From positions 158,102,001 through 158,166,000 of the forward strand of contig CM059431.1 in the NCBI GenBank assembly GCA_030390025.1: a stretch of DNA of 64,000 bases. Reading direction: 5' to 3'. Both the position numbers and the translations under genes were made by a program. This document shows positions 550 through 56,558 of this stretch, one piece after another (position 1 is the stretch's first letter; each line of letters opens with the position of its first letter). Origin of the DNA: Squalus acanthias (taxonomy: Eukaryota). The notes under the pieces are model-generated. The model was not told the origin of the DNA. It saw only the letters and a list, made by a program, of their open reading frames with translations, and made no database searches.

Positions 550-816
550 GTAATACAAAAAAAAATACAGCAGATGCCGGAATATCTCTTAATTTCTCTC
601 AACCTCTTCCGCCTTCTATCCTATCACTGAACTTCCCTTTTGTTCTTTCCTCCCCTCTCCTCTTTCCCAGCCTCTACACTTGCTTAAAAATCTGTTCCAT
701 TTCGTGTTTTTTTACAGTTCTGAAGAAAGGTCATCGACCTGAAACGTTAACTCTGTTTCTCTCTTCACAGATGCTGCCTGACCTGCTGAGTTTCTACAGC
801 AGTTTCTGTTTTTAAT
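550..816 (+). mobile_element. Penelope-like-derived short element with a hammerhead motif, inserted at the NLR exon/intron boundary
   Basis: Flanked by an imperfect 15-bp duplication (cctgagtattttaca 535-549 / ccggaatcttttaca 817-831). Same family as 4455-5534, 21944-22200 and 56076-56558. Confidence 0.75.
715..752 (+). ncRNA. Minimal type I hammerhead ribozyme motif
   Basis: cagtt-CTGAAGA-aaggtc atc gacct-GAAA-c gtt-aact: CUGANGA and GAAA cores, helix II AGGUC/GACCU, palindromic AACGUU helix III, helix I agtt/aact. Confidence 0.75.
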
Positions 817-2850
817 CCGGAATCTTTTACATTTGTGCATCATGGGCTCCAGCTGACGGATCCCTTCATCTTGTACATCGCAAGTGTCCATATTCTGCTC
901 TTCCATGACTTCAACGGCCACGAACGTGGTTGAAAGAATCGCACAGTCACAAGGTTTAAGAGGACATTGTTTGAAAATTACTTTCTTTAGCGGTGTTAAT
1001 GCGGCCTGCATCAGGTCTGTGTCTCCGAAAACACGAAAATAATCCAATATTTTTAAGAACGTCCATTGGGTTTGCCCTTCTTCTAAGTTTTTAACACGCG
1101 TGTTGAAATATTTTTCGAGCCAAAGCAACAAACTAGCGATTGTTTCAGAAGGAATTGGACCCAATTTCAGCTCAAGCTGACAAGTTGAATAGCGTGAGCA
1201 AACAACAACAAGAAACCGTGAAAATGTCTTAAAATTGTCGTCAGCGCACGGTAATCCGTTATCGAGCAATCGTGTCAGTCCATTTCCTGCTGGACTTTAT
1301 GCAAGAGCAGCGAGAAAGTCCTGCATAACGCAGTGAGTGAATGTGTAGACAACAGTACACATGTCTTTGTCTGGAATCTCCATCATAAACGCACAGATAA
1401 GATTAGGAAGTTCGATTATGTGGCGATTGAATTGGTCTGACTTAATCAAAACGGTTTTGTTGCAAACTCCCTTGTCGGCTAACTCGCCCAAATTTAAGCA
1501 ACATGTCGCGAGAGTTTAACGCGTCACAAACGCATCTCTCCAAAAGGACAGTGACGTAACTGGATAACACCCGTGTGCTGGTTGAGAAAAACAATGGTCT
1601 CTCCCTCACTCCTTGTGACCGGCGTGACTCTAATAGCGAATCGAGGACCGAGCAGTACAGGGCATTATTGCACATGGTGGACAACATCTTATTCTGCTCA
1701 ATGTACTCGATTACATCTGTCCCAAATTGTTCATCTACAAAATAACGACGAAAGTATTGTTCAATTTTCTCAGAGGTGAAACGCTGGATTTCGACCGACA
1801 AATTTATGTTTGCCTTTCCCGCTGACTCCAGTTTCCACGGCCGGCTTGTGATCAGCACTGAGCAGCCTTTCAGCAACTCTCCCTGTATGAGGCAGCGCAC
1901 GATGTCTGAAACTTCACAGCAGCACTCGGGATCGAAACACAGATTTTTGGGGTCGTTGTTTCTCTGATTATCGGTGAAATCAATGGTTTGCTCAAATTGA
2001 TCTAAATCATCAAACATAAAGTAATATTTCCGTGCTGTTTGCAGAAAAGTTCCAAATCATTTTCGAAATCGGGGTAGGAATCCAGGTTCAGGCTATTTAG
2101 ACATGTTTTTCAGTTTATTGAATTAAATTGTCGAACCTTAAAAGGAAAGACACATCTAAACTGTTTGTATATTTTCCCAGCGGCCCAATCACGGATTATC
2201 TTCTGTATCATGGTGCTTTTCCCACACCCCGAGGCCCCAATTACTGCAGTTGTCCCAGACCTGCCTGTTTTAGCGAAACTCAACAATTGATCTATTTGAA
2301 TTTCTTACAGTTCGTTATCGATGTTTTTTCTCTGTAATTCTTCACGCTCTCTACCTCGGGCCTTCAGTTTATTTTCCACCTGTCTCCGCTCATGCAGAGA
2401 AGCAACAATCGCTATATTAGTGTATTTTTCATCCAGAAAAAATCTTCGATATCTTTGTTTTACTACAGTGGTTTTGACTGTCAGTTTCTCATTCTGTTTG
2501 CAGAGGGTATCTTTGTGCTGTAGTTCCATCTCTTGAATATGATCAACGTCATTTGTGTAGTCATTGTAATTCAGGAGACACATATTTAACAGATCAGTTC
2601 TATGAAGGACAAACTAATCGTCAAGAAATAAAAGGTCTAAAATGGTTCTGAACAATGAGTCAGCCTGTAGTCATTTTAAACTTTAGTGCCCAGACACTCA
2701 TAGAAATAAGCACAATAGCCGTACACATCATAAATTTCTGAAGTACCAGGAAACAAGCTTGAGGATAGTGGGCCGTCTGCTGTTGGTCATTGAGATTCTG
2801 CGAATAAAGGTTTCTAAATTACGACAGTAATTGCAGAAGTCGATCTTGGT
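817..2850 (-). pseudogene. NLR (FISNA-like + NACHT + helical domains) pseudogene, left copy
   Basis: Fragmented ORFs 2305..2583, 1442..2017, 1297..1491 and 712..1269 align with the intact NLR (CFDPEC, DIVRCLIQGELLKGCSVLITSRP, VVYTF.H...Q.FLAAL, HKCK). Walker A GASGCGKST lies near 2210-2240. There are several frameshifts and stops. The 5' limit is approximate. Confidence 0.9.
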
Positions 2851-2856
2851 AAATTG

Positions 2857-3215
2857 CTGGTATTTAATCTTCACAGGACAATATGCGTTATGAATGTCCC
2901 CTCCTTTCGTCATGTAACAAACAATGTTGTTATGTCACGGATCACGGCAGCAAATGTCTTCCGTCATTTTATTCTAACCCGGGGATTCCATTGTTTTATT
3001 CTGCTGCTCAATGCTTTAACCGTCAGACACATTTTAGTGGCCAGCAGAGATCGCAGGAGACTCTTGGGTCACAGCAGTGGGGAGAGTCCCAGAGACCCAG
3101 AGATTAAGAGACGAAGAAAATCCATTATTTTACTGTATGTTATACCTTTGAATTTGCTACTCTTATGGTCAATCTTTATGGTGTATTCTATATGGAGGCG
3201 AAATAGTTTTTCGGG
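2857..3215 (+). pseudogene. GPR139/GPR142-like class A GPCR fragment (end of TM4, ECL2, TM5, ICL3, TM6)
   Basis: The translation HFILT...ILLLNALTVRHILVASRDRRRLLGHSSGESPRDPEIKRRRKSIILLYVIPLNLLLLWSIFMVYSIWRR resembles the GPR139-like receptors expanded in cartilaginous fish. It is frameshifted and truncated at both ends. Confidence 0.75.
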
Positions 3216-3529
3216 TATCAGTAAGCATTACCACTTAGTTTTGTCCTAAAAATGCCATTCTCTTCATATTCTACATAAATAAAATATGTGTATGTCTGTA
3301 TATATGTTATATATATATATATACATACATCAACACATACATAATATATATATATAGGTAAAAAGCACAGACATGCATATATTTGTTTTCAAAATACAGA
3401 AAAAATGGCATATTTGGGACTGAAGTGGAGATTTCATACATCCATGAATACCAGTAATTTTCAGATTGACACCTCCGCTTCAAATAGTTAAACACATTAG
3501 GAGACCAGAGCACGGCACAAATTGCACCA

Positions 3530-3650
3530 ACTTCAAGCCGCCCGATACTCAGATCCATTGGTCAATGGAAGGCAACATGGACCGAGCGCATAACGGGCGG
3601 CAGATGTAATAAACCGCGTTTTACTTCCCGCCAAATTCGAATTTCACCCA
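3530..3650. mobile_element. Short palindromic MITE-like element (related to 60022-60185; inverted copy ~22710-22830)
   Basis: Shares the ccattggtcaatgg core, ataacgggcgg and the terminal aatttcaccc with 60022-60185. Confidence 0.45.
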
Positions 3651-4051
3651 TAATGTTTTAATCTAACTAATCTCAAAATACGTCCCGCTCAGTCACCAAC
3701 CTTCTCAGGGGCAATTTGTGTTGGGCAATAAATGCTGGCCTTGACAGCGACGCCCACATCCCTTGAATGAATGAATAAATATATATTTATATGGAAGCGT
3801 ATGTCATTAAAATGAACCTATAACTGTTCTAGACGATGATCTGAGACTACAGATTATATTTAATGCCTTGGAATCAGCAGATGCTGTTGAACAATTAACA
3901 TTAGTCGTGACTTTCATATGTTTGCCTAAAGAGCTAATATATAATATATAGCGATTCAAAGAATGAAGCGGTAAATGATGCACCTTTCTTGCTTTCTTTC
4001 TATCTTTCTTCTTTCTGTCTTTCTTTCTGTCTTTCCTATGGTCTTTCTGTC

Positions 4052-4454
4052 TCGTGAACCTTCGTTGCACTCCCTCTATTGCAAGTATATCCTACCTTAG
4101 GTAAGGAGACCAAAATTGTAAAAAGTCCTCCAGGTTTGGTCTCAACAAGGCCCTATATAATTGGAGTAAGACTTCTTTACTCCTGTACTCAAATTCTCCT
4201 GTAATGTAGGCCAGCAAACCATTTGCCTTCCGAATGGCTTGCTGCACCTGCACATTCACTTTCAGTGACTCATGTACAAGGATACCCAGTCCCTTTGAGC
4301 ATCTGCATTCCCCAATCTTTCACCATTTAGGAAACACTCTGCCTTTATTTTTTTTCAACCAACGTGTATAGCTTTATATATATCCACATTATATTCCATC
4401 TGCCATGTTCTCGCCCATTCACTGAGCCTGTCGAGATCCCATTGAAGCCTCTTC
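4052..4454 (-). mobile_element. CR1 LINE RT C-terminal fragment
   Basis: Reverse complement of 19028-19432, which encodes QWQMEYNV...LYRVLVRPHLEY-like sequence. Confidence 0.85.
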
Positions 4455-5060
4455 ATAGTAAACGTTTCATTTAGATTACTCTTCGTCAGGACTGGAAAAT
4501 GCTGGAGATCGAACTGGTTTTAAAGCAAGTGTAGGAGCAGGGAAAGAGGTGAGGGGAGGAAAGAACAAAAGGGAAGGTCTGTGAAAGGATGGAAGGCTGC
4601 AGATATTAAGAGGCATTATGAGATGGTGCAAGGCAAAGAGCGATGGTAATGGAGCAAGTTAAGAAACAAAAGATCGCTCTAGATGGAAGGCAGGAGATAT
4701 TAAGAGACATTAAGAGAAATTAAGAGATGGTGCAATGCAAAACGAGATGATAATGGGACAAGTTACGAAACAAAAGATGTCTTTAGATGAACTGTAAAAA
4801 AAATCTATCAATCTCTCCTGCCTTCCGTCTAGAGCTATCTTTTGTTTCTACCATGTCCTATTACCATCTCCCTTTGCCTTGCACCATCTCTTAATGTCTC
4901 CTGCCTTCCACCTAAAGCCATCTTTTGTTTCTTAACTTGACCCATTACTATCTCCTTTTGCCTTGCATCATCTCTTAATGTCTCTTAATCTCTCCTGCCT
5001 TCCATCTTATCACAGACCTTCCCTTTTGTTCTTTCCTCCCCTCCCCCTTTCCCTGCCCTT

Positions 5061-5362
5061 CACAGAATCACAGAATCCCCACAATGCAGATAGAGGCCAT
5101 TTCAGCCAATCGAGCCTGCACCGACACATATGCCACCAACCCCACGTATTTAATCCCCCCTAACACTAAAGGTCAATTTATCATAGCCAAATCAACCTAA
5201 CCCGCACATCTTTGGACTGTGGGAGGAAACCGGAGCACCCGGAGGAAACCCACGCAAACACGGGGAGAATGTGCAAACTCCACACAGACAGTCACCCGCG
5301 GCCGGATTCGAACCCGGGATCCTGGCGCTGTGAGGCAACAGTGCTCACCACTATGCCACAGT
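5061..5362 (-). mobile_element. tRNA-derived V-SINE (HE1-like)
   Basis: The minus strand has A/B boxes (tggcatagtgg; gggttcgaatcc), a V-domain (gtgtggagtttgcacattctccccgtg...ggtttcctccgggtgctccggtttcctcccaca) and a (ttctgtga)n CR1-type tail. Confidence 0.85.
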
Positions 5363-5397
5363 ATTGCTTAAAAACCTATTCGATCTCCAGCTTTTTC

Positions 5398-5435
5398 CAG
5401 TTCTGATGAAGAGTCGTCGACCTGAAACGTTAACT
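5398..5435 (+). ncRNA. Minimal hammerhead ribozyme motif
   Basis: cagtt-CTGATGA-agagtc gtc gacct-GAAA-cgtt-aact. Confidence 0.7.
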
Positions 5436-5559
5436 CTGTTTCTCTCTCCACAGATGCTGCCTGACCTGCTGAGTAATTCCAGAATTTTCTGGGGGTTTTT
5501 CAGGTTTCAAGCATACGCAGTTTTTTGCTTTTGTCCCAGAATAGTCTTACGTTCTCTCT

Positions 5560-6920
5560 TTTTGGTAATTTCTAACCAATCTGTCAGCTAATGGATTTCA
5601 CCTACCTATATCATCTCTGACTCATGTTGTAATAGTATATTAAAACAAAAAGGTTACCAGTCCTCCTCTTCCAGTTTCCTCTCCTTACTAAAGACATTAT
5701 AACCTAGAATATTTAAATCCTAATCCTGACCATCTTGCAGCGATATCTCAGTAATGGCCACCAAATCGCAGCCTCGAAGCTGTATGTCAGCCTCAATTTC
5801 ACTCAATGTATTTCTTATACTTCAAGCGTTAATATATAAGACAGAATTTTGTCCAAAGGACCCTAACCTATCCTTCCACCCTGATGCTGTTTTTGATAAA
5901 CTGTTAAACTGAACACGATTATTACTTGTCACGTCTCCTGTAACTACTTTAGTTGTTTCAGGATTCATTTCGTGTGTAGAATCTATATCACTCTTTGTGA
6001 CCTGAAATTTGCTTTTGGACCTTTTTTTAAAAGAATGAACTATCATTTTTACTACTGTGTCCGACGTAGTCCTTCTCCCATGTATTAGTTTACAGTCATT
6101 TTATTCCGCCTGGTAATCATTTCCGCTAAGATTATCGGAAACCCAGTGCACACCTGTCAGGATCCTGTTACACTGTGAAACCCCATACACATATGTTAGG
6201 ATGCTGATACACTCTGAAACAAAATACTCACCTGGTAGCATCGTGACACACTGTGAAACCCCAGGATTATCTGGCACGATCCCGAGAAACTGTGGAAAGT
6301 AACAGGGCAACCGGGCCCAATGGTACACCTCTTTCCTGTCCTAGTACTGTTGCTGATCTCCCACGAAATCGAACCCCACCTTCCCTTAAATACTCCTTTA
6401 GCCACGTGCTCATTTTCCTGGTCTATTTGTCCCGTTGCTGATTACTACGTGGCTCCGGTAATAATAATAAAATTAATACCCTTCATTTTCTGCGTTTTAA
6501 TTTAGCTGTGAAGTCCTGATAATTATTCTGCAGGAATTTCTACACTTCCTAACCTATGTCATTGGTTCCGTCATAGACCACAACAACTGGATCTTCCCCT
6601 TACTTTCCAAATTCCTTTTCAGAAGCATGGAGCTAAACCTTAACCTGGCATCATGTAGGAAGCACATCCTTCGCGTCTCTAGATCGTGGCTACAGAGGAT
6701 GCAATCTACCCCTCTAAATGTTGACTCCCTTATAACTATTAAGTTTCGAATCTGCTCCTCCCGTCTGCATAGATCAGCATTCTTGCTGTCCTTCCCGCAT
6801 TCGTTCTCCTTGTCCTGACAGGAATCAAGCACATCATACCTGTTGCATTGGAGCCGGGGTCTGCGGACCGTCCTCCTCCATCTCCACTGAGTTCCGCATA
6901 CCCTGCTAGCAGTCACACTC
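5560..6920 (-). mobile_element. Old CR1 remnant (ORF1 esterase part and APE N-terminus)
   Basis: ORF 6554..6922 (NRYDVL...IVIRESTFRGVD..LC) is a decayed version of CR1 ORF1 53406..54290. The region ~5680-5770 reads as DLVAITE...LNILGY (APE). Confidence 0.6.
6135..6295 (-). repeat. Short patch of the 39-bp minisatellite (inverted copy of the start of the 28107-29100 array)
   Basis: The reverse complement of 6141-6226 matches 28107-28195, including the variant unit tattttgtttcagagtgtatcagcatcc.aacatatgtgtatgggg. Confidence 0.8.
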
Positions 6921-6921
6921 A

Positions 6922-9900
6922 CCCCTGGTTACACAATGTCTGATCTCAGTGGGCCCATCCTCCCCGTGTGAAACACTGCCAGATATAACAGCACTCACCC
7001 TCCCGGGTTACACACTGTCTGATCTCAGTGGGCCCATCCTCCCCGGGTTACACACGGTCTGATGTCACTGGACCCATCTTCCCCGGGTTACACACTGTCT
7101 GATCTCACTGGGTCCATCTTCTACGGGTTACACACTGACTGATCTCAGCGGGACCAGCCTCCCCGGTTTACACAATGTCTCATCTCACTCGGCCCATCCT
7201 CCCCGGGTTACTCACTGTCTGATCTCACTGGGCAAATAGAAACACACTGTCTGATCTAAATGAGCACAACCTCCCCGGGTTACACACTGCCTGATTGACT
7301 GGGCCCATCCTCTCGGGTAACACACTGTGTAATCTCACTGGACCAATCCTCAACGGGAACACACTGTTTGGTCTCACTGAACCGATCCTCCCCGGGTTAC
7401 ATACTGTCTGATCTCACTGGGTCCATTCTCACATTGTTAAAAATTGTCTGATTTCATTGCGCCCATCGTCCCCAGGTTACACAGTGTCTGATATCACTGA
7501 GACAATTGTGAATTAGTTACACATTGTCTGATCTCACTGGGCACAGCATCCATGTTTTACACGCTGTGTGATTCCATTTTGCACATTTTCCATGGGTTGC
7601 ACACTGTCTGATCTCACTGGGGCATCCTCCCGGGTAACACAGTTTCTGATCTCACTGGGGTCACCCTCCCGGGTTACACACTCTCTGTACTCACTGTGCC
7701 CATCCTCCCTGGGTTACACACTGTCTCCTCCCACGGGATCCATTCTCTACGGTTTACTCACTTTCTGCTCTCACATGGCCCATCCTATATGGGTTACACA
7801 CTCTCTGATCTCACTTGGCGAATCCTCCCCGGGTCTGTTCCACTGGACCCATCCCCTACGTGGTACTCACTGTCTGCTCTCACTGGGCACATCCTCCCCG
7901 GATTGCACACTGCCTGGTCTCACTGGGCCCAACCTTCCCGTGTTACATACTGTCAATCTCAGTTAATCCATCCTCCCCGGGTAACACAATGTCTGATCTC
8001 ACTGGGCCGATCCTCCCCTTGTTACACATTTTCTGATCTCACTGGGCCCATCCTCCCCGGATGACACACTGTCTGATCTCACTGGCAGCTTCCTCCCCGG
8101 GAGACACACTGTCTGATCTCACTGGAACCCTACTCCCCTGGTTAAACACTGTCTGATCGCATTAGGCGCATCCTCCCCAGGTTATACACGGTCCAATCTC
8201 ACTCAGTCCATCTTACACGGGTAAAACACTGCCTGATCTCACTGGGCCCAACCTGTCCGGTTTACACACTGTCTGATCTCAGTGAGCCCATCCTCTCCAG
8301 TGAAAACACTGTCGGATTTCACTGTGCCCATCCTTTCCGGTTTAAACACTGTGCGATCTCACTGTACCAATCCTCGCAGGCGAACACATTGTCTGATCTA
8401 CTGGGCCGATCCCCCCCGGGTTACACACTGTCTGATATGAGTGGGCCCATCCAATACGGGTTACACACTGTCTGATCTCACATGGCCCATTCTCCTCGGT
8501 TTACACACTGTCTGATCTCACTGGGTAAATCGTCCCAAGTTAACACAGTGTCTGATATAAATGAGCCCATCCTCCCCGGGTTACACATGTGCTCATCTCA
8601 CTGGGTCCATCCTCTCGGGTAACACACTGTGTAACCTCACTGGACCAATCCTCAACGGGTTACAAATTGGCTGATCTCAGTGGGCCCATCCTCCCCGGAT
8701 TACACACCGTCTGCTCTCACTGGGCCCATCCCCTACGGATGACACACGGTCTGCACTCACTGGGTCCATGCTCCCCGGATTACAAACTGTCCGATCTCAT
8801 TGTGCACATCCACCCCGGTTTAAACACTGTCGGATCTCTCTGGACCCATCTTGCCCGGGTTACACACTGCCTGCTATCACTGGGCTCATCCTCTCCGAGT
8901 TAAACACTGTCTGATCTCACTGGCACCTTCCTCCCCGGATAAAAAACTGTCTTATCTCATTAGGCGCATCCTCCCCAGGTTATACACGGTCCAATCTCAA
9001 TGGTTCCATTTTACACGGGTTACAGACACCCTGATTGGGCTGATACACCCCGGATTACACACTGCCTGATCTCACTGGGCCTAACCTCCCCGGTTTACAC
9101 ACTGTCTGATTTTACTGGGCCCATCCTCCCCCGTGAAAGCACTGTCGGATCTCACTGTGCCCATCCTCCCCGGTTTACACACTGTCTGATCTCACTGGAC
9201 CAATCCTCCCCGGGTTACGCATTGTCTGATCTCACTGGGCCCATCCCCCCCGGGTTACACATTGTCTGATATCACTGGGCCAATCCTCCTCGGTTTACAC
9301 ATCGTCTGCTGTCACTGGGCCCATCCTCTACGGGTTATGCACTGTCTGATCTCACAGTGCCCTTCGTCACCGGGTTACACAATGTCTGATCTCAATGGCT
9401 CCATCCTCCCCGGATTACATATTGACTGATCTCACTGGACCCATCCTCCCCGGTATACACAATGTCTGATCTCACTGGAACCATCCACCCGGGTTACACC
9501 CTGTCTCATCTCACTGGAACCATCCACCCCGGGTTAAAAACTGTCTCATCTCACTGGGCCCATTGTCCCTTAGTTACACATTGTCTGATCTCACTGGGCA
9601 GCGCATCCATGGTTTACACGCTGTCTGATCTCAATGGGCCTAATCCTCCACGGGTTACACAAAGTCTGCTCTCATTTGGCCTAATCTCCCCGGGTTACTC
9701 ACTGTCTGATCTGACTGGGCCCATCCTCTCTGGTTACATACAGTCCAATCTCACTGGGTCCATCCTCCCGGGTTAAACACTGTCTGATTTCAATGTACCC
9801 ATCCTCGCCGTGTTATAGAATGACGATCTCATTAAGCCCATCAATCCCTTTGTTATACACTCTTTGATCTCAATCGCCCTATCCTGTCCCCCGGTTACAG

Positions 9901-10814
9901 ATTGTCTGATCTCACTGGACCCATTCTCCCAGGTTTACAAAATGATAGGTCTCGTTGGGCCAATCCTCCAGAGGTTACACATTGTCTGAAATCACTGGTT
10001 CCATCCTCCCCGGTTTATACATTGTCTGCTCTCACTGGGCCCATCCACACCGGGTTACTCACTGTCTGATCTCACTGGGCTCATCCTCCCTGGATACACA
10101 CTGTCTGATCTCACTGTGCCAAACTTCACAGGTTACATACTGTGCAATCTCACTGGGTTCAGCCTCCCCGGTTTACACAATGTCTGATTTCACGGTACCC
10201 ATCCTCGCCGGTTTATAGATGGTGCGATCTTACTGAGCCCATCCTCCTCTTTGTTATACACTGTTTGCTCTAATTCGCCCTATCCTCCCCGGGTTACAGA
10301 CTGTCTGATGTCACTGTGCCCATACTCCCAGGGTTACAAACTGATTGTTCTCGTTGGGCCCCTCCTCCCGGCGTTACACCTTGTCTGATCTCACTGGGTG
10401 CAACCTGCCCGGGTTACATGCTGTCTGATCTCACTGGGCCCACCCTCCCGAGGTTACACACGGTCTGATCTCACTGGACCCACCCTCCCAGAGTTACACA
10501 CTGTCTGATCTCACTGGGTACAACCTCCCCGGAATGCATGCTGTCTGATCTCACTGTGCCCATCCTCCCGGGATTACACAGTATCTGATCTCACTGGGCC
10601 CATCCTGCCCGGGTTACACACTGTCTGATTTCACTGGGCCCATCCTCCCCGGGTCACACACTGTATTATCTCGCTGGGACCCTCCTCCCCGGGCTACACA
10701 CTGTCTGCTCTCACTAGACTCATACTGTACGCGTCACACACTGTCTGCACTTACTGGACCCATGCTTCCCGGATTACACACCCTCTGATATCACTGGGCA
10801 CATCCTCCCCGAGT
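6922..10814 (+). repeat. 40-bp satellite array, block 1
   Basis: Consensus cacactgtctgatctcactgggcccatcctccccgggtta; units start at 7011, 7051, 7091 and 7131. Confidence 0.95.
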
Positions 10815-11806
10815 TAGAAACATACATAGAAGATAGGAGCAGTAGTAGGCCATTCGGCCCCTCGAGCCTGCTCCGCCATTCGATGAGATCATGGCTGATC
10901 ATCTAAACTCAGAACCCTGTACCTGCCTTCTCCCCAGATCCCTTGATACCTTTAGCTTTATGAAATATATCTAACTCATTCATGAATATATTTAATGACT
11001 TGGCCTCAACTAACTTCTGTGGTAGAGAATTCCACAGGTTCACCACTCTCTGGATGAAGCAATTCTTCCTCATTTCTGTCCTAAATGGCTTACCCCTTAT
11101 CCTTAGATTATGACCCCTGGTTCTGGACTCTCCGAGCATCGGGAACATTCATCCTGCATTAGTTTGTCCAGACCTGTCAGAATTTTATATGTTTCGATGA
11201 GATCCCCTCTCATTCTTCTATACTCCAGCGAGTATAAGCCCAATCGACCCAATCTCTCCTCATAAGTTATTCCTGCCATCCCAGGTATCAGCCTTGTGAA
11301 TCTTCGCTGAACTCCTTCCAAGGCGAAAACATCCTTCCTCAGATAAGGCGACCAAAACTGCACACAGTACTCAAGGTGTGGTCTCACCAAGGCCCTGTAC
11401 AACTGCAGCAGGAAATCTCTGTTCCTATACTCAAACCTTTTCGCTATGAAGGCCAACACACCATTTGACTTCTACACTGCCTGCTGCACCTGCATGCTTA
11501 CCTTCACTGGCTGATGCACAAGGACACCCAGGTCTCGTTGCACTTCCCCTTCTCCCAATCTATTGCCATTCAGATAATAGTCTGCCTTTCTGTTTTTTGA
11601 AACCAAAGTGGATAACCTCTTTTTTATCCACGTTATATTGCATCTGCCAAGCTTCTGCCCAATCACCCAACCTGTCCAAATCATCCTGGAGTTTCTCGGT
11701 ATCCTCATCGCAGCACACACGCCCACCCAGCTTTGTGTCATCTGCAAACTTGAAGATCTTACATTTAGTTCCCTTATCTAGATCATTAATGTATATTGTG
11801 AATAGC
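10815..11806 (-). mobile_element. 5'-truncated CR1 LINE inserted in the satellite
   Basis: FADDTK-region and RT C-terminal ORFs (11103..11459, 10909..11148), a 3' stem-loop, and an 8-mer tail (tagaaaca) at 10815. Confidence 0.92.
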
Positions 11807-18665: not shown

Positions 18666-18988
18666 AGAGATTAAGAGATTTTCTTTTACAGTTCATCTAG
18701 AGCCAGCTTTTGTTTCGTAACTAGTCCCATTATCATCTCGTTTTGCCTTGCACCATCTCTTAATTTCTCTTAATGTCTCTTAATCTCTCCTGCCTTCCAT
18801 CTAGAGCGATCATTTGTTTCTTAACTTGCCCCATTTCCATCTCCCTTTGCCTTGCACCATCTCATAATGTCTCTTAATCTCTGCTGCCTTCCATCCTTTC
18901 ACAGACCTTCCCGTTTGTTATTTCCTCCCCTCACTTCTTTCCCTGCCCCTAAACTTGCTTAAAGACCAGCTCGAACTCCAGGTTTTTC

Positions 18989-19027
18989 CAGTCCTGACGA
19001 AGGGTTATCCACCTGAAACGTTGACTG
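18989..19027 (+). ncRNA. Minimal hammerhead ribozyme motif with a variant helix I
   Basis: cagtc-CTGACGA-agggttatccacct-GAAA-cgtt-gactg. Helix I is cagtc/gactg here and agtt/aact in the other copies. Confidence 0.65.
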
Positions 19028-20928: not shown

Positions 20929-20969
20929 GTACATCATTTAGCGCTTCATTCTTTGAATCTCTATATATT

Positions 20970-23034: not shown

Positions 23035-23040
<6 letters not shown>

Positions 23041-23093
<53 letters not shown>
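23041..23093. repeat. (TA)n microsatellite
   Basis: Direct reading; the paralogous site in the left arm (~3309-3323) is much shorter. Confidence 0.95.
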
Positions 23094-23097
<4 letters not shown>

Positions 23098-45790: not shown

Positions 45791-46378
45791 GTGGAGATGC
45801 CGGTGTTGGACTGGGGTGAACAAAAATGAGAATTCGCACAACACCAGGTTATAGTCCAACAGATTTATTTAAAATTACAAGCTTTTGGAGCTGTCGCCCC
45901 TTCCTCAGGTAAAGTTACTGTGAGACAATCTCCCAGAATTCACAATATAAACACAGAGAAAATGCATTCAATCTTTCCCTACATCAAAGACACACTAAGA
46001 GCCCAGCCAAGACAATGAGATGTGTCCCAGGGGGTCCAACGTGTCAAAACACCTGCTGGCTGCATATCCTCTCCATTTGGGTTTGTTTCTTGTGTTTAAA
46101 AAAACAAACACAAGAAACAAACCCAAATGGAGAGGATATGCAGCCAGCAGGTGTTTTGACACGTTGGACCCCCTGGGACACATCTCATTGTCTTGGCTGT
46201 GCTCTTAGTGTGTCTTTGATGTAGGGAAAGATTGAATGCATTTTCTCTGTGTTTATATTGTAAATTCTGGGAGATTGTCTCACAGTAACTTTACCTGAGG
46301 AAGGGGCGACAGCTCCGAAAGCTTGTAATTTTAAATAAATCTGTTGGACTATAACCTGGTGTTGTGCGACTTCTCATT
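45791..46378. mobile_element. Fold-back Penelope-like element end (second family): 273-bp inverted arms plus a 34-nt tail, 15-bp TSD
   Basis: Arms 45825-46097 and 46106-46378, 8-nt spacer aaaaaaac, about 4 mismatches. TSD aaaatccttcaagat at 45776-45790 and 46379-46393. Confidence 0.9.
46291..46328 (+). ncRNA. Minimal type I hammerhead ribozyme
   Basis: ttac-CTGAGGA-aggggc gaca gctcc-GAAA-gc tt-gtaa: helix I ttac/gtaa, helix II ggggc/gctcc, palindromic AAGCUU helix III. The mirror copy on minus (~45875-45912) has GAAA changed to AAAA. Confidence 0.8.
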
Positions 46379-46440
46379 AAAATCCTTCAAGATTTTGAAG
46401 GCCTTTATCAATACACCCTTTGTAATCGATTCCAACATGA

Positions 46441-48845
46441 CCCTGTGAAACTGCCCCCTTTTAATCTCCCCCCTGTGAACACCATCCTGTGAAACTCCCC
46501 ACTGTGAAACACCCCCTGTGAATCTTCCCCCTGTGAAACTCACCACTGCGAAACACATCCTGTGAATCTCCTCCCTGTGAACTCCAACCTGTGAAACTCC
46601 CCACTGAGAAACACCCCCTGTGAATCTCCCCCCTGTGAAACTCACCACTGTGAAACACCCCCTGTGAATCTCCCCGCTGTGAACACCATCCTGTGAAACT
46701 AACACCTGTGAATCTCCCCCCTGTGAACTCCATCCTGTGAAACACCCAACTGTGAAACACCCCCTGTGAATCTCCCCCCTGTGAAACTCCCCCCTGTGAA
46801 ACTGCCCCTGTGAAACACCCACCTGTGCAACGTCCCCCTGTTAATCTCCCCCACCTGTGAAACACCTCCCCTGTGAAACTCCCCCTGTGGGACTCCCCGC
46901 TGTGAAACTCACGGTGTGAAACATCTCCCCTGTGAATACCACCCTGAGAAACTCCCGCCTGTGAAACTCCCCCTGTGAAAAACCCCTTGTGAATCTCCCC
47001 CCTGTGAACTTCATCCTTTGAAACTCCCACCTGTGAATCTCCCCCCTGTGAAACTCACCACTGCGAAACACCCCCTGTGAATCTCCCCTCTGTGAACTCC
47101 ATCCTGTGAAACTCCCCACTGAGAAACACCCCCTGTGAATCTCCCCCCTGTGAAACTCATCACTGCGAAACACCCCCTGTGAATCTCCCCCCTGTGAACT
47201 CCATCCTGTGAAACTACCACCGGTGAATCTCCCCCCTTTGAACTCCATCCTGTGAAACTCCCACCTGTGAATCTCCCCCCTGTGAACTCCAGCCTGTGAA
47301 ACTCCCACCTGTGAATCTCCCCCCTGTGATCTCCATCCTGTGAAACTCCCACCTATGAATCTCCCCCATGTGAACTCCATCCTGTGAAACTCACCACTGT
47401 GAAAAACCCCCTGTGAATCTCCCCCCGTGAACTCCATCCTTTGAAACTCCCACCTGTGAATCTCCCCGCTGTGAACTCCATCCTGTGAAACTCACCACTG
47501 TGAAACACCCCCTGTGAATCTCCCCCCTGTGAAAATCCCCCCTGTGAAACTGCCCCTGCGAAACACCCAGCTGTGCAACGCCCCCCTGTGAATCTCCGCC
47601 CCCCGCTGTGAAACTCCCCCCTGTGAAACACCCTACTGTGAAACATCCCCGTGATACTTTCCTTGTGAAACACCTCCCCTGTGAAACTCCCCCTGTGGGA
47701 CTCCCCGCTGTGAAACTCACGGTGTGATACATCTCCCCTGTGAATACCACCCTGTGAAACTCCCGCCTGTGAAACTCCCCCTGAGAAAAACCCCTTGTGA
47801 ATCTCCCCCCTGTGAACTCCATCCTTTGAAATTCCTACCTGTGAAACTCCCACCTGTGAAAATCCCCCCTGTGAAACTGCCCCTGTGAAACACCCACCTG
47901 TGCAACGCCCCCCTGTGAATCTCCCCCTCTGTGTATCTCCCCCCTGTGAACTCCATCCTGTGAAACTCCCCCCTGTGAAACACCCTACTGTGAAACACCC
48001 CCTTGATACTTTTCTTGTGAAACACCTCCCCTGTGAAACTCCCGCTGTGGGACTCCCCACTGTGAAACTCCCGCTGTGAAACATCACCCCTGTGAATACC
48101 ACCCTGTGAAACTCCCGCCAATGAAACTCCCCCTGTGAACACACCCCTGTGAAACTCCCACCTGTGAATCTCCCCCCTGTGGAAATCTCCACCTGTGAAT
48201 CTCCCCACTGTGAAACTCCCCACCTGTGAAACAGCCCCCTTGAATCTCCCCACCTGTGAAACTTGTCCCCCTGTGATACTCACCCCTATGATGCTTCCCC
48301 TTGTGATTCTCCCCACTGTGATACACCTCGCGTGCGAAACACGCCACCCGTGAAACTCCACCCTCTGAGTTCCACTTTGTGAAATTCCCCCGGGTGAAAG
48401 TCCCCTCTGTGAAACTGTCCCCTGTGGTACTATCTCCTGTGAAATATTCCCCCTGTAAAACTCCCCAGCCGTGAAATTCCCCCTGTGAAACTTCATTCCC
48501 TGTGAAACTCCATTCCCAGTGAAAACCCCTCCTGTGAAACTCCCGCCCTGGAAACTCTCGCCTGTGAAACTCCTCCCCTGTGAAACTCCCTCCTGTGAAA
48601 CTCCCGCACTGTGAAACACCTCCCGTGTAAACCACTCCACCCGTGAAACTCCCCACTCCTGAAACGCCCCCCTGTAATACTCCTCCCTTTGAAACTCCCC
48701 GCTGTGAAACTGACCCCTGTGAAACCCCCTCCTGTGAAACATCTCCCCTATGAAACTTCACCCCTGTGAAACAACCCCGCCTGTGAATCTGTACTCCTGT
48801 GAAAATCCATCTCCTGTGAAACTCCATTCCCTGTGAAACTCCCAT
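46441..48845. repeat. Strand-asymmetric ~14-17-bp minisatellite (ctgtgaaactcccc)n with higher-order duplications
   Basis: ctgtgaaa/ctgtgaat recurs throughout, separated by C-runs. Longer blocks also recur (e.g. cacccacctgtgcaacg at ~46816, ~47564 as a variant, ~47891). Confidence 0.92.
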
Positions 48846-50825: not shown

Positions 50826-51221
50826 CAGGTCACTTAAGCAGAAATCAGTCGTTGTTTCGGCTGCTGACTGACCTGTAGTGCATTCCCTGCAGGTTAAAAA
50901 GAAACAGCGAGTATGTGAATCTCCATAAATTACTTGAAACACAAACATTTCACTGGGTAGTGTCCAGCGTATATTAACGTCCCATTACATGATTAACTAG
51001 TTTACTCTCTTTCATTTTTTTAGTAGAATCTGGAGATATAAAACAACCCCGAACTGCACCAGTAACAGCGAGAAAGAAAACTGTTTCAATTATTCTCAAT
51101 TAACCCATCCTTCGACGCAACAATCGTCTAATGCCCCTTAGTCTGCTGCATAGACTGAAAATGCGGCTCACATGTCGTTATTCCACTAAATATATAACTA
51201 AACTTAAAGAAGGAAATTTAC

Positions 51222-51413
51222 CGGATTTGAATTTGATTCTTTCTATGTTTCGCGAGGTCCTCCAGCTGAAGATACGAATCAGATGTGAAACAATTTCTTC
51301 TCTCGCCGTAATTTTCATTCGAACTGAGTTCCACAATTTTCAGCAATTGGTTCTTGTTGAGTGCGGAGCAGAGTTCCTCGGTACAAGCGTCTGTGAGACC
51401 GTTGTTGTTCAAA
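51222..51413 (-). CDS. LRR exon 2 (192 nt) of the intact NLR
   Basis: aatgcag|t LNNNGLTDACTEELCSALNKNQLLKIVELSSNENYGERRNCFTSDSYLQLEDLAKHRKNQIQI cg|gtaaat; open and in phase. Confidence 0.88.
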
Positions 51414-51593: not shown

Positions 51594-51680
51594 TCCATTG
51601 TTTCTATTTTGCAGTCCGCTCTCGACAATATTTCACAAAGTCCGTGCACTCCAGCATCTTTCAAATTATTGTCTTTCAGG
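51594..51680 (-). CDS. LRR exon 1 (87 nt) of the intact NLR
   Basis: ttccctgtccttag|c LKDNNLKDAGVHGLCEILSRADCKIETM ga|gtaagt; phase 2-2, compatible with the NACHT exon. Confidence 0.9.
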
Positions 51681-51825
51681 CTAAGGACAGGGAAATACAA
51701 TTTAGTGATGGGGTCTGAAATAATAATAATTTCTCTATACGTAGATGGATTAGAAATGAATGGCTTTATTAGCAGGAAAGACATTTGGAGAAGATTCCCC
51801 TTTTCAATGTTTAAAGATAAACCAA

Positions 51826-54350
51826 CCTTGAAGAGAGGAACAACATTCGCCACTCTCCAGTCCTCTGGCACCATCCCCGTGGACAGTGAGGACCCAAAGA
51901 TCAAAGCCAAAGGCTCTGCAATCTCCTCCCTTGCCTCCCAAAGAATCCTAGGATATATCCCATCTGGCCCAGGGGACTTATCGACCCTCAGGTTCTTCAA
52001 AATTGCTAAAACATCTTCCCTCAGAACATCTACCTCCTCCAGCCTATCCACCTTTATCACACGCTCATCCTCAAAAACATGGCCCCTCTCCTCGGTGAAC
52101 ACTGACGAAAAGTATTCATTCATCACCTCTCCTATCTCTTCTGACTCCATGCACAAGTTCCCACTACTGTCTTTGACCGGCCCTACCCTCACCCTGGTCA
52201 TTCTTTTATTTCTCACATAAGAGTAAAAAGCCTTGGGGTTTTTCTTGATCCGACCCGCCAAGGACTTCTCATGCCCCCTCCTAACTCTCCTAAGCTCTTT
52301 TTTTTAGCTCATTCCTTGCTACCTTGTACCCCTCAATCGACCCAACTGAACCTTGTTTTCTCATCCCTACATACGCTTCCTTTTTCCTCTTGACTAGACA
52401 TTCAACCTCTTTTGTGAACCATGGTTCTCTCACTCGGCCATTTCCTCCCTGCCTGACAGGGACATACCTATCAAGGACACGCAGTAATTGCTCCATGAAA
52501 AAGCTCCACTTTTCGCTTGTGCCTTTCCCTGATAGTTTCTGTTCCCATCTTATGCTCCCTAATTCTTGCCTAATCGCATCATAATTACCCCTCCCCCAAT
52601 TATAAACCCTGCCCTGCCGTATGGCCCTATCCCTCTCCATTGCAATCGTGAAAGTCACCGAATTGTGGTCGCTATCTCCAAAGTGCTCTCCCACATACAA
52701 ATCAAACACTTGGCCCGGTTCATTACCCAGTACCAAATCCAATGTGGCCCCACCTCTTGTCGGCCTATCCACATATTGTGTCAGGAAAGCCTCCTGCACA
52801 CACTGTGCAAAAACTATCCCATCCGAACTGTTTGACCTATAAAGGTTCCAATCAATATTTGGAAAGTTGAAGTCACTCATGACAACTACTCTGTGACCTC
52901 CACACCTATTCATAATCTGCTTTGCAATTTCTTCCTCCACATCTCTATTACTATTTGGGGGCCTGTAGAAAACTCCTAACAACGTGACCGCTCCTTTCTA
53001 TTTCTAACTTCAGCCCATATTACCTCAGACAGCAGATCCCCCTCGAACTGCCTTTCTGCCGCTGTTAAACTATCCTTGATTAACAATGCTACTCCTCCAC
53101 CTTTCTTACCACCTTCCCTACTCTTACTGAAACATCTATACCCCGGAACTTCCAACAACCATTCCTGTCCCTGTTCTAACCATGTCTCCGTAATGGCCAC
53201 CACATCGTAGTCCCAAGTACCAATCCACGCTCCAAGTTCTCCTACCTTATTCTGGATGCTCCTTGCATTGAAGTAGACACACTTCAAGCCACCTTCCTGT
53301 CTGCCGGTACATTCCTGCGACCTTGATACCCTCCTCAGTACCTCCCTACACTCATCACTGGCTCCTGGACTACAGCCCTTTTTCCCATTCCCCTGACAAA
53401 TTAGTTTAAACCCCCCGAAGAGCCGTAGCAAATTTCCCTCCCAGGATATTGGTGCCCCTCTGGATCAGGTGCAAACCGTCCTGTTTGTACAGGTCCCACC
53501 TTCCCCAGAATGCGCTCCAATTATCCACATAACTGAAACCCTCCCCCCTACACCATTCCTGCAGCCACGTGTTAATCTGCACTCTCTCCCTGTTCCTCAA
53601 CTCGCTGGCACGTGGCACCGGCAACAAACCAGAAATTACAACATGGCTTATACTGGCTCTCAGCTTCCAACCTAGCTCCCTAAATTCCTGTTTTAAATCC
53701 CCGTCCCTTCTCCTACCTATGTCGTTGGTACCGATGTGTACCACGACTTGTGATTGTTCCCCCTCCCCCTTGAGGATTCTGAAAACACGGTCCGAGATGT
53801 CACGGACCCTGGCACCCGGGAGGCAACATACCATCCGTGAGTCTCTTTTGCTGCCACAGAACCTCCTATCTGTCCCTCTGACTATTGAGTCCCCAATAAC
53901 TATTGCTCTCCTGCTCTCCCCCCTTCCCTTCTGAGCCACAGGGACGGACCCAGCGCCGGAGATCCGGTCACCGCGGCTTACCACCGGTAGGTCGTCCCCC
54001 TCAACAGCATCCAAAGCGTTATACCTGTTACTGAGGGGAACGACCACAGAGGATCCCCGCACCGACCGCCTCCTCCTAGCCCCTCTCACCGTCACCCATC
54101 TATCTTCATTCTTTGGAGTAATTACATCCCTGAAGCTTCTATCTATGACCTCCTCTGCCTCCCGAATGATCCGAAGTTCATCCAGCTCCAGCTCCAGTTC
54201 CCTAACACGGTTTTCGAGGAACTGGAGATGGGTGCACTTCCCACAGGTGTAATCAGCAGGGACACCTACGGCGTCCCTCACCTCAAACATTCTGCAGGAG
54301 GAACCTTACACTGCCTCCCCTGCCATCCCCTCTAGCTAACTTGCGGATTA
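51826..54350 (-). mobile_element. 5' part of a CR1 LINE (ORF1, APE, ORF2 up to VPLFK), inverted relative to its 3' part
   Basis: ORFs 53406..54290, 52976..53431 (YFNARSI, VVAITETWL), 52290..52982 (SDFNFP, GDSDH) and the start of 51590..52261 (KSPGPDGIYPR, ANVVPLFK). Confidence 0.92.
53406..54326 (-). CDS. CR1 ORF1 protein (Cys motif, coiled coil, SGNH/GDSL esterase-like domain); N-terminus disrupted by a stop
   Basis: CGKC, LELELDEL heptads, VIGDSIVR, VHIGTND and DGLHL. An upstream ATG at 54326 is followed by an in-frame TAA. Confidence 0.85.
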
Positions 54351-54689
54351 AACTAGAACAGATTTAAACCAATCCACTGTTTTGTCTATTCAGGGGCGGA
54401 TCAGTTGTTGTCACCGAAGTAATCGGCTTCCCACAAAAGCTACAGAATCCCGGGAATACCTGCACCCTCCAGGGAATGAGTTGCCGTGATCTTGACATTT
54501 ACATTGTAATTATTTCTGTGGTGCCCAAGTTTAATATTCTCCTGAGACTCGTATTCCAATCCAGTTACAGTCCTATGCTGTGAGTGTGTGGGTGTGTCTG
54601 GTACAGTGGGTGTGACAGGCACTATGTCTGTGAGTGGGACAAATAAGATTTATCAGAGTAAAAGAGCGGGAACCGGCGCAGTTTAAAAG

Positions 54690-56066
54690 GAGCCGGTTAG
54701 TCTTACTTCGGTGGTTGGTAAGATAATGGAAAAGGTCCTGAGGGATAGGATTTATGACCATTTCGAAAGAGGCAACTTAATCAGGGATAGTCAACACGGA
54801 TTCGTGAAGGGTAAGTCTTGCCTAACAAATTTGATTGAATTCTTTCAGTAAGGTAACTAAGTGTGTAGATGAAGGTAGAGCAGTTGATGTCGTATACATG
54901 GATTTTAGTAAGGCGTTTGATAAGGTTCCCCATGTTCGGCTCATGAAGCAAGTAAGGAGCTGTGGGATAGAGGGAAATTTGGCCGATTGGATAAGTGACT
55001 GGCTATCTCATAGAAGGCAGAGGGTGGTGGTGGATGGAAAATTTTCGGACTGGAGATCAGTTACCAGCGGTGTGCCACAGGGGTCGGTGCTGGGTCCTCT
55101 GCTGTTTGTGATTTTTATCAATGACTTGGAGGAGGGGACTGAAGGGTGGATCAGTAAATTTGCTGATGACACCAAGATTGGTGGAGCAGTGGATGAGGTG
55201 CAGGGCTGTTGTAAGCTGCAAAGAGACATTGATAGGATGCAGAGCTGTGCCGAAAAATGGCAGATGGAATTTAACCCTGATAAGTGCGAGGTGATTCATT
55301 TTGGTAGGGCAAATTTGAATAAGCATTAGAGGGTCAACGGCAGGGTTCTGAGGAACGTGGAAGAACAGAGGGATCTGGGGGTTCATATCCACAGATCTCT
55401 GAAGGTTGCCACTCAAGTGGATAGAGCAGTAAAGAAGGCCTATAGTGTGTTAGCGTTTATTAACAAGGAGTTTGAGTTTAAGAACCGTGAGGTTATGCTA
55501 CAACTGTACAGGACCTTGGTGAGACCACATTTGGAATATTGTGTGCAGTTCTGGTCACCTCACTATAGGAAGGACGTGGAAGCATTGGAAAGAGTGCAAA
55601 GGAGATTTACCAGGATGCTGCCTGGTTTGGGGGGGAGGTCTTATGAGGAAAGATTGAGGGAGATAGGGCTTTTCTCTTTAGAGCGGAGGAGGATGAGAGG
55701 CGACTTAATAGAGGTTTATAAGATGATGAGGGGGATAGATAGAGTGGATGTTCAGAGACTATTTCCTCGGGTGGAGGTAGCTGTTACAAGGGGGCATAAC
55801 TATAAGGTGCAGGGGGGGGAGATATAGAAGGGATGTCCGAGGTAGATTCTTTACTCAGAGAGTGGTTGGGGTGTGGAATGGACTGCCTGCTGTGATAGTG
55901 GAGTCGGACACTTTAGGAACTTTCAAGCGGTTATTGGATAAGCACATGGAGCACACCAGAATGATAGGGAGTGGGATAGCTTGATCTTGGTTTCGGACAA
56001 TGCTCGGCACAACATCCAGGCCTGAAGGGCCTGTACTGTCCTGTAAGGTTCTATGTTCTATGTTCT
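54690..56066 (+). mobile_element. 3' part of the same CR1 (RT and 3' UTR)
   Basis: Starts at PVSLTSVVGK; contains [23 protein letters not shown] and KFADDTK; ends in a (ttctatg)n tail. Confidence 0.93.
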
Positions 56067-56075
56067 ACAAGTATG

Positions 56076-56558
56076 AAAGCAAAATACTGCGGATGCTGGA
56101 AATCTGAAATAAAAACAGAAAATGCTGTAAATACTCATCAGGTCAGGCAGCATCTGTGGAGAGAGAAACAGAGTTCACGTTTCAGGTCGATGACCCTTCA
56201 TCAGAACTGGAAAAAGTTGGAGATGGAACAGATTTTTATGCAAGTGTAGGGACAGGGAAATAAGTTAGAGTCATCTTTTGTTTCTCAAATTGTCCCATTA
56301 CCATCTCCTTTTGCGTTGCACCATCTCTTAATGTCTCTTAATCTCTCCTGCCTTCCATCCTATCACAGACCTTCCCTTTTGTTCTTTCCTCCCCTTCCGC
56401 CTTTCCCTGCCTCAACACTTGCTTAAAACCCGGTTCAATCTCCATCTTTTTCCAGTTCTGACGAAGGGTCATCGGCCTGAAACATTAACTCTCTTTCTCT
56501 CTCACTCCACAGATGCTGCCTGACCGGCTGAGTATTTCCAGCATTTTCTGCTTTTATT
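56076..56558. mobile_element. Fold-back Penelope-like-derived element with hammerhead motifs in both arms
   Basis: Inverted arms from ~56108 to 56558, a 32-nt unpaired tail (56076-56107), and TSD ta(c/t)aagtatg (56066-56075 / 56559-56568). HHR cores lie at 56172-56209 (minus) and 56453-56490 (plus). Confidence 0.82.

Follow-up and report, generated by a model that had tools for sequence, protein, structure and literature searches.

The fold-back hairpins in the window (the whole 64-kb stretch of DNA that was analysed) exist but are nothing unusual, being short dead-end copies from two Penelope-type families that are common genome-wide. We hold it to be very probable that these stubs derive from two endonuclease-bearing Penelope-like families, of which they keep the 3' ends after 5' truncation, and that each fold-back was made during its own insertion, with both ends of the break priming reverse transcription (RT). 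An earlier note had read the same hairpins as possible self-propagating, retrozyme-like units that place ribozymes and double-stranded RNA in NLR transcripts. Its observation was partly confirmed and its interpretation partly supported.

Hammerhead cores and insertions in the window

Hammerhead-like sequence is present at 10/10 sites where the earlier note had placed minimal cores. We used a minimal type I descriptor (4-bp helix I, CUGANGA, helix II, GAAA, UH), which passes 8/10 sites, namely 716-752+, 5399-5435+, 18990-19026+, 46291-46328+, 56454-56490+, 56172-56208-, 25622-25658- and 22010-22045-, and gives 0 hits in each of 100 shuffled windows. The site at ~45875-45912- fails because GAAA has become AAAA, with loss of G12, and the site at ~4455-4493- fails because its helices have decayed. 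Seven of the eight passing sites carry H, not G, at the cleavage site; position 17 of 56172-56208- is G. The palindromic helix III (AACGUU or AAGCUU) that had been described is kept in some cores and lost at two that pass the descriptor, 56454-56490+ (ACAU) and 22010-22045- (AAGU). With these three defects and the two descriptor failures, core, palindrome and H17 are all kept in only 5/10 cores, and half of the window cores thus carry decay-type changes. Nor are the ten independent: 715+ and 25622- are twins within a 93% inverted duplication (1-3929 / 22432-26372), and 4455- and 18989+ are twins within a 92% duplication (4050-4816 / 18666-19433), which leaves five independent insertions and two twins.

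The type I search that the earlier note proposed therefore succeeds with the descriptor and finds nothing with Rfam, whose models gave no hammerhead match in the window at E<=1 or in two parent loci at E<=10, a comparison that presupposes their fit to motifs without helix III. The Rfam matches in the window are miRNA models on hairpins and repeats, all under the gathering score. Folds of single hammerheads (45 nt) are no more stable than shuffles (z -1.7 to +1.4), so folding energy is evidence neither way.

The three insertions described as complete were borne out in their coordinates, their target site duplications (TSDs) and their single tails. Insertion C (21944-22200) belongs to a young subfamily of family 1 and has an exact 14-bp TSD; its arms are 90% and 97% identical to an open-ORF parent, the tail-less - arm carrying the hammerhead at 22010-22045 with its broken palindrome, and the + arm (22090-22200) beginning within helix II and ending in the tail. 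Insertion D (45791-46378), the family-2 case, has a 34-nt tail (45791-45824), an exact 15-bp TSD and arms (45825-46097, -, and 46106-46378, +) that are 99% complementary; it carries the intact hammerhead at 46291-46328 and the G12-mutant copy at about 45875-45912, and is 94-95% identical to one full-length family-2 parent. Insertion E (56076-56558, family 1) has its tail at about 56076-56107 and a 10-bp TSD with one mismatch; its - arm, reaching 56260, holds the G17 hammerhead at 56172-56208, and its + arm (56266-56558) the palindrome-broken one at 56454-56490.

The remaining insertions are also of family 1. Insertion A (550-815, +) consists of a tail-less pLTR arm (~584-815) with the hammerhead at 716-752 and an inverted tail-only piece at its left end. 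Its twin in the inverted duplication (25558-25823, -; hammerhead 25622-25658) has a 15-bp TSD with two mismatches. Both follow the logic of the three complete insertions, but their second arm is tail-only. Insertion B (4454-5531) is a fold-back with no convincing TSD. Its left arm (-) is cut short just past the decayed hammerhead at 4455-4493; its right arm (+), with the hammerhead at 5399-5435 and a tail reaching 5531, is split by an unrelated ~300-bp sequence (about 5064-5363), and the insertion carries internal ~93-bp duplications. The twin of its left arm (18666-19029, +) has the hammerhead at 18990-19026, with a rare C-G pair in helix I.

Parent elements of the two families

Judged by sequence, both window families consist of the pLTR and tail that close the 3' side of full-length Penelope-like elements (PLEs) in the same genome, as the earlier note had supposed from their minimal hammerheads. 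The search for RT- and GIY-YIG-encoding parents recovered full-length elements of both, each encoding an RT and a GIY-YIG-type nuclease together with a CX4CxxC linker. Of 30 loci, many have a GIY-YIG match 150-200 bp upstream of the family-1 arm and on its strand. This family also forms full-length 3.2-kb head-to-tail tandem arrays (L196-L198) with a 1004-codon open frame that starts inside the pLTR hammerhead. Partial tandems (L199, L201, L205, L208) occur as well. Family-2 arms continue into RT frames of 687-860 codons. Pfam matches in the parents are mostly under the curated cut-off: RVT_1 and GIY-YIG are weak in family 1, and in family 2 RVT_1 exceeds the cut-off while the nuclease has no match, although it aligns to family 1 through the YIGET region (E 7e-120 overall). 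The two parent proteins are 33% identical to each other, and their translations both show cysteines between the two core motifs and two downstream histidines. Neither protein found a match in PDB by sequence.

An initial assignment of family 1 to the Poseidon type was abandoned on account of its CX4CxxC linker. Neptune and Nematis PLEs are described as having a CX2-5CxxC linker upstream of GIY-YIG that is absent in Penelope and Poseidon (passages of PMC8557442), and both parents probably resemble the Neptune/Nematis type, a placement made by this linker motif and not by a tree. The two families are compared with endonuclease-bearing (EN+) PLEs by description. Shared with these, as portrayed in parts of PMC8557442 and, for Pen2a_Av and Pen2_Av, of PMC3846280, are the single RT plus C-terminal GIY-YIG ORF, tandem or partial-tandem arrays forming pLTRs, the inverted truncated copy, the TSD, a one-sided tail of 30-40 bp and an ORF that begins in the pLTR or directly behind it. 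The TSDs differ, being mostly 12-15 bp here against the 8-10 bp quoted for Adineta. PAc, the Poseidon of Anolis, shares an ORF that starts at the hammerhead (family 1 here), a tail lying between two preferred 3' ends, and A+T-rich targets, although its clade sets it apart from our CX4CxxC-bearing parents (passages of PMC11167929).

The hammerheads resemble the minimal motifs of metazoan PLEs (PMC4209133) in their 4-5-bp helix I, the unpaired base before helix II, palindromic positions 15-16 without helix III, and their mostly solo occurrence or opposite-strand pairing 100-700 bp apart; they differ in a 5-bp helix II. They are also abundant, with at least 35,000 motifs of one family in the genome. 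One family-1 35-mer occurs 34,191 times exactly, compared with ~4,000 motifs in coelacanth and ~9,000 in Xenopus counted by a different method. Helix I had been described as varying with its pairing preserved; the two families differ in its sequence, and both versions pair. Within family 1, the pair is U-A in 34,191 copies, U-G in 1,209, C-A in 163 and C-G in 19 (5.8 expected), and the A-to-G change also leaves the amino acid encoded by the ORF unaltered. The cagtc/gactg form is sporadic; its last base abuts flanking LINE-like sequence, and with 19 scattered copies against 34,191 we rejected it as a subfamily marker. Twelve hand-picked family-2 copies, with relatedness uncontrolled, show C-G, U-A and U-G, with 98% of cells paired and 10/500 shuffles equally high.

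Formation of the fold-backs

An inverted 5'-truncated copy with a one-sided tail is a published layout (PMC8557442, Fig. 2 legend; passages of PMC3846280). Across this genome, exactly one tail occurs in 51/52 distinct TSD-bounded fold-backs, on either arm. These 52 include seven fetched by their likeness to insertion E and two from the window itself, without which 42/43 are one-tailed. The sole exception has flanks inverted around a palindrome, and so no true TSD. Since 30/61 arms are tailed in an unbiased sample, independent choice of tail at each end would leave only ~50% of fold-backs one-tailed; in L147, one of eight unbiased pairs, the tail-less end is unusually short. Compared with what the consulted descriptions of EN+ PLEs offer, the asymmetry is here counted and is independent of arm length. 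Among 14 family-2 cases the tail sits on the shorter arm in seven (for example 688 vs about 2360 nt, and 350 vs about 2240 nt), on the longer arm in six, and one has equal arms.

The one-tail pattern suggests coupled priming from two start sites. Passages of PMC11167929 report that two RT start sites bound the tail, that both strands are cut, that a dimer is predicted and that insertion in vitro needs no hammerhead cleavage; start-site coupling within one insertion is not stated in its passages on PAc. The element protein would cut both target strands 12-15 nt apart, in keeping with TSDs that are mostly 12-15 bp and A+T-rich. One DNA 3' end would prime at the end of the tail, the other some 33-34 nt inward of it, and both cDNAs would stop at random and join head to head with 0-5 nt of overlap. 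Some junctions show gaps, not overlaps, partly through reference mismatch. We lean modestly towards Penelope integration being such a coupled, asymmetric two-ended reaction, with the outer start used on one strand of every fold-back insertion and the inner, 33-34 nt away, on the other, never the same start twice, and with either arm free to be the longer. The hammerhead would be a pLTR passenger, under selection in source elements and decaying in stubs. That its cleavage sets the ends of copies was not supported: none of 29 near-full-length copies has its 5' end within 10 nt of the predicted cut, and 3' ends cluster about 54-102 nt past it.

The same elements could instead acquire the inverted arm by self-priming, through snap-back of the first cDNA or an antisense template as in PMC3846280. 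Sister arms do belong to one lineage (family 2: 6.2 shared and 0.19 discordant subfamily alleles per pair, vs 0.8 and 6.4 in random pairs), and those of L075, L207 and L215 are identical over 350-600 nt, unlike all other sampled copies; some centres, such as that of L049, are short palindromes. We nevertheless consider this route improbable. Under simple snap-back the tail-less arm could at most equal the tailed arm that it copies, whereas the tailed arm is the shorter in 7/14; together with the one-tail rule this disfavours it, and the tail-only arms of insertion A (seen by eye) and L059 also speak against it. Tail-only second arms are what classical single-RNA twin priming would be expected to leave, and they are rare here (1/26 unpaired arms with a candidate TSD; 39 further unpaired arms lack a candidate TSD).

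That the hairpins are transcribed, cleave themselves and reinsert whole as non-autonomous units, as the earlier note proposed, is in our view very improbable. Their small size and common layout would suit it, and animal non-LTR retrozymes, also pLTR-related, non-coding and bearing a type I hammerhead, have been argued to be pLTR-derived (bioRxiv 10.64898/2026.07.22.740005). Those retrozymes, however, are defined as tandem units each with a hammerhead, whereas the elements here stand alone or head to head, vary in length and form a continuum with coding parents. Fold-back arms range from about 30 bp to >2.3 kb, junctions differ between copies, and the copies grade into full-length RT-endonuclease elements; all mapped family-2 fold-backs differ in centre, and the check for a fixed hairpin centre found centres and arm lengths differing in every copy examined, which argues against mobile hairpins or retrozymes. 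The two hammerheads of a fold-back also lie on opposite strands, so that one transcript has a single sense hammerhead, and same-strand cores in the window stand 3.6-27 kb apart with no tandem same-strand units. One fixed-centre family-1 hairpin outside the window has been amplified at least 885 times, but it lies inside a larger repeat, its copies share at least 1.9 kb of flank and its hammerhead core is lost, and we regard it as a passenger; one frame of the carrying repeat gave no Pfam match.

NLR context and significance

Insertion E lies between the open NACHT exon of an NLRP3-like gene (60249-61969, -) and two predicted LRR exons of the same gene (51594-51680 and about 51220-51413, -), within a predicted intron (51681-60248). 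The reading frame stays open when spliced at GT/AG sites, and the placement of E in the intron of an intact NLR thus holds as a prediction. A search for RNA data sets containing this stretch listed none. Two contigs among those listed, from four weakly matching runs of relatives, have alignments that end exactly at the predicted donor, 60249; such breakpoints, with the contigs continuing elsewhere, are a weak hint. A joint from 60249 to an LRR exon is absent from the alignments listed. Insertion A coincides with the splice donor of the NACHT exon in a frameshifted NLR copy (-), the TSD of its twin duplicates the splice-donor region of a second frameshifted copy (+), and D is found some 5 kb past the final coding exon of the open NLR.

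These positions invite the idea that the NLR cluster kept or accumulated stubs because they regulate NLR RNA by self-cleavage or dsRNA signalling, and descriptor-passing hammerheads are indeed denser than background (8 per 64-kb window vs 18 per 800 kb of random sample, or 1.4 expected). We think this very unlikely. The density of insertions is near background, at five independent vs 3.6 expected per 64 kb (P about 0.25-0.29) or seven when twins are counted (P about 0.06-0.07), in a window itself picked for having such insertions, and a special tie to the cluster is not borne out. Insertion E is predicted to fold into a long hairpin (-235 kcal/mol, z -18.7), so a dsRNA hairpin in NLR pre-mRNA survives as an in silico expectation. 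A working ribozyme is not supported: in E the hammerhead in sense orientation carries G at its cleavage site, and almost every base of it is expected to pair with the antisense arm, so it is predicted to be buried in the hairpin and not to cut NLR pre-mRNA. In A and its twin the intact cores run antisense to the respective NLR copies, and the decay of half the cores likewise weighs against regulation. The stubs probably have no effect, beyond at most a dsRNA hairpin within an intron.

As background repeats, the stubs carry little weight as an immune-gene or retrozyme story, and since the fold-back layout is already published, the one-tail count is a modest addition. The near-absolute one-tail rule and the often shorter tailed arms constrain how Penelope-like elements finish insertion, a step left unvalidated in the relevant passages of the 2024 in vitro paper (PMC11167929). 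The genome also holds intact, near-identical full-length parents, and the wealth of motifs in one family offers a large natural collection in which to ask where selection acts on the hammerhead. If the coupled two-ended reaction is true, tens of thousands of scars from two young families would be a direct record of second-strand synthesis, and the intact parents would be ready substrates for the study of these telomerase relatives.

Hammerhead motifs and parent elements

The inverted-arm stubs in this NLR cluster are real, and they are ordinary insertion scars of Penelope-like elements (PLEs) from two families. The earlier note had listed ten minimal hammerhead cores, and hammerhead-like sequence is indeed present at all ten. 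As type I hammerheads, eight of the ten sites pass a minimal descriptor that has no match in 100 shuffled windows. An Rfam search of the window and two parent loci listed no hammerhead. The core at ~45875 has lost G12, the helices at ~4455 have decayed, the 56172 core has G at position 17, and the palindrome is broken at 56454 and 22010; five of the eight descriptor-passing cores retain every feature. Under the standard hammerhead numbering, the six-base palindrome as previously described takes in A14 and U17; only its inner four bases would form helix III of a dimer, and GUU or CUU are the cleavage triplets. Two pairs of cores, 715+/25622− and 4455−/18989+, are segmental-duplication twins (93% and 92% identity), leaving five independent insertions: A (550-815), B (4454-5531), C (21944-22200) and E (56076-56558) of family 1, and D (45791-46378) of family 2. 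According to the accessible text of PMC4209133, metazoan PLEs carry minimal hammerheads, some of them as opposite-strand pairs separated by 100-700 bp; monomers showed no cleavage and dimers a low level of it.

Genome searches linked the arms of both families to ORF-bearing Penelope-like elements, the parents that the earlier note had proposed to look for. A GIY-YIG search of the 3.7-Gb assembly gave 31 matches at 30 loci, at many of which a family-1 arm follows in the same orientation, 150-200 bp downstream. When the 5' portion of one family-1 ORF is searched against the genome, its best 40 matches are all 100% identical, so this young family is probably recently or still active. They include head-to-tail 3.2-kb arrays with intact open frames of 1004 codons (L196-L198; C7:118.06 Mb, C15:26.58 Mb); the frame starts in the pseudo-LTR, its methionine codon lying within the hammerhead core. 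At L207:6854-7918, a family-2 fragment sits ~300 bp past the point where a young, full-length copy of family 1 ends on its 3' side. Family-2 arms continue into reverse transcriptase (RT) frames of 687-860 codons, with the start codon a few bases after the tail. For C, identity to the young family-1 parent is 90% and 97%; A, B and E are closer to an older ORF-linked family-1 copy (85-94%) than to the young parent, and D is 94-95% identical to one RT-frame-bearing family-2 element. The parent proteins are 33% identical and share YIDD, the nuclease motif YIGET and a CX4CxxC linker; family 1 has weak Pfam support, and the family-2 nuclease has no Pfam match. By the motif rule for PLE type in the accessible text of PMC8557442, both parents would be of the Neptune/Nematis type.

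In 12 hand-picked family-2 copies of uncontrolled kinship, one position pair in helix I is variously C-G, U-A and U-G, and one in helix II is A-U or G-U. For one family-1 pair, the genome holds 34,191 U-A, 1,209 U-G, 163 C-A and 19 C-G, the last against 5.8 expected under independence. The wobble excess in family 1 fits selection on pairing, yet the change is also synonymous in the ORF. The pattern suggests that the hammerhead is selected in source elements, not in stubs.

NLR genes around the stubs

An open NACHT exon at 60249-61969 (−) has shark and ray NLRP3-like proteins as its closest relatives, which points to a cartilaginous fish as the likely host; two others, at ~817-2532 (−) and ~23860-25557 (+), are broken into several frames. 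E lies between the NACHT donor at 60249 and LRR exons at 51680-51594 and 51413 to ~51220. The predicted exons splice at GT/AG and the frame stays open, in agreement with the intronic position claimed for E; RNA support for this splicing is absent, save a weak hint from relatives' RNA. On the gene's strand, E folds in prediction into a long hairpin in which its sense hammerhead, carrying G17, has nearly all bases paired with the antisense arm (predicted probability at least 0.95). With G17 and this predicted pairing, self-cleavage of the NLR pre-mRNA by E is unlikely, contrary to the suggestion of a ribozyme there.

In 800 kb sampled at fixed steps from 12 large contigs, we counted 45 PLE insertions, which corresponds to 3.6 per 64 kb. 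Five independent insertions lie in the window (P 0.25-0.29), seven if the twins are counted (P 0.06-0.07), and the adjoining 40 kb has two. Descriptor-passing motifs are ~5 times denser than in the sample (8 vs 1.4 expected); they occur as pairs and twins, in a window picked for having them. A role of the stubs in NLR regulation is unsupported, given G17, the buried sense core, and five independent insertions against 3.6 expected.

Matches resembling NLR N-terminal exons flank the window, on the plus strand 12-18 kb ahead of it and on the minus strand 3-14 kb beyond it (L081-L083); they are probably 5' exons of these NLR copies. If those on the plus strand belong to the plus-strand copy, its intron would hold three intact plus-strand cores in sense orientation, but the reading frame of that copy is broken by frameshifts. 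Insertion A (within 535-830 and 25543-25838) hit the splice donor of the NACHT exon in an NLR gene ancestral to two copies, both now frameshifted. Its target-site duplication repeats the donor region in both broken copies, and the GT now lies downstream of the insert, so that the exon would gain ~280 nt of antisense element sequence. Elsewhere in the window are long minisatellite arrays with 70-75% self-similarity (~6920-10820, 11800-13500 and 16880-18665, which are related to one another, and 46430-48845) and LINE fragments with three RT frames, an AP-endonuclease frame and a GDSL-esterase-like frame (15024-16205, 30902-31933, 37612-38715 and 52290-54305).

Fold-back architecture and insertion mechanism

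The complete insertions C, D and E have the ends originally described, a single tail each, and target-site duplications (TSDs) of 14, 15 and 10 bp, respectively. A consists of an arm without a tail and an inverted tail-only piece, and its 15-bp TSD, with two mismatches, is clearest in the twin. In B the left end is missing, and no TSD is convincing. B and its twin (4588-5007, 18694-18895) contain a tandem duplication of ~93 bp from the family-1 3' region. An unrelated stretch of ~300 bp (5064-5363), presumably a SINE or LINE 3' end, splits B's right arm. Inverted 5'-truncated copies, often with a 30-40-bp tail at only one end, are described in the accessible text of PMC8557442, and inverted inserts of this kind with TSDs in that of PMC3846280.

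The stubs had been proposed to move as retrozyme-like hairpin units, a reading that their centres do not support. Every family-2 fold-back mapped differs in arm length and junction, from ~110 nt to full length, and sister arms of both families span ~30 nt to 2.3 kb; the elements in the window belong at the short end of a size range that grades up to full-length copies. The exception, outside the window, is a small family-1 hairpin whose centre is fixed, with 885 exact junction matches genome-wide (for example L092:9742-9886, L098:263-415, L130:9271-9415, L132:824-956 and L226-L231). Its copies have at least 1.9 kb of flank in common (~80-86% identity) and their hammerhead core is cut away, so this hairpin spread as a passenger of another, older repeat. 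One frame of the carrier may be Myb/SANT-like, as in Harbinger transposons; Pfam gave no match for it. Part of the carrier resembles window 57668-58070 at 73%.

A scripted scan of the collected loci, minus 15 duplicates, for inverted arm pairs flanked by a direct repeat returned 53 pairs, 52 of them distinct. One end is tailed and the other tail-less in 51 of 52, and none has two tail-less ends; the lone two-tail case has inverted flanks round a palindrome, not a TSD. Seven of the 52 had been selected for similarity to E and two come from the window itself; without these the count is 42/43. In the unbiased 800-kb sample, 30 of 61 arms carry a tail; each of the eight TSD-bounded pairs has a single tail, and in one of these pairs the partner is unusually short. 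The TSD measures 12-15 bp in 45 of the 52 fold-backs, and TSDs have 68% A+T against a background of 55%. Sister arms belong to the same subfamily, and readable junctions have 0-5 nt of overlap, with some gaps that are due in part to reference mismatch. Simple truncated single arms are common, tailed as well as tail-less; tail-only partner arms are rare.

For an Anolis element, the accessible text of PMC11167929 describes a protein, predicted to be a dimer, that extends both target strands, prefers A+T-rich DNA, uses two reverse-transcription start sites bounding the tail, and inserts in vitro without need for hammerhead cleavage. On the simplest reading of our fold-backs, a staggered break of 12-15 nt would prime synthesis at both ends, each DNA end using one of the two start sites, and the two truncated cDNAs would then be joined head to head. 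Antisense self-priming has been put forward as an idea in the accessible part of PMC3846280. Simple snap-back copying would also make an inverted arm, but it predicts a tail-less arm that is never longer, and fails in half the cases: among 14 family-2 fold-backs, the shorter arm carries the tail in seven and the longer arm in six, and the arms are equal in one. As for the template of such two-ended priming, none of 29 near-full-length copies starts within 10 nt of the predicted hammerhead cut and many run through it, in line with an uncleaved RNA. A literature search covering few subscription papers found no count of tail asymmetry and no shark PLE hammerhead study; the supplements of PMC4209133 and PMC11167929 may hold shark motifs or tail counts. 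The one-tail rule counted here adds a small point on mechanism.
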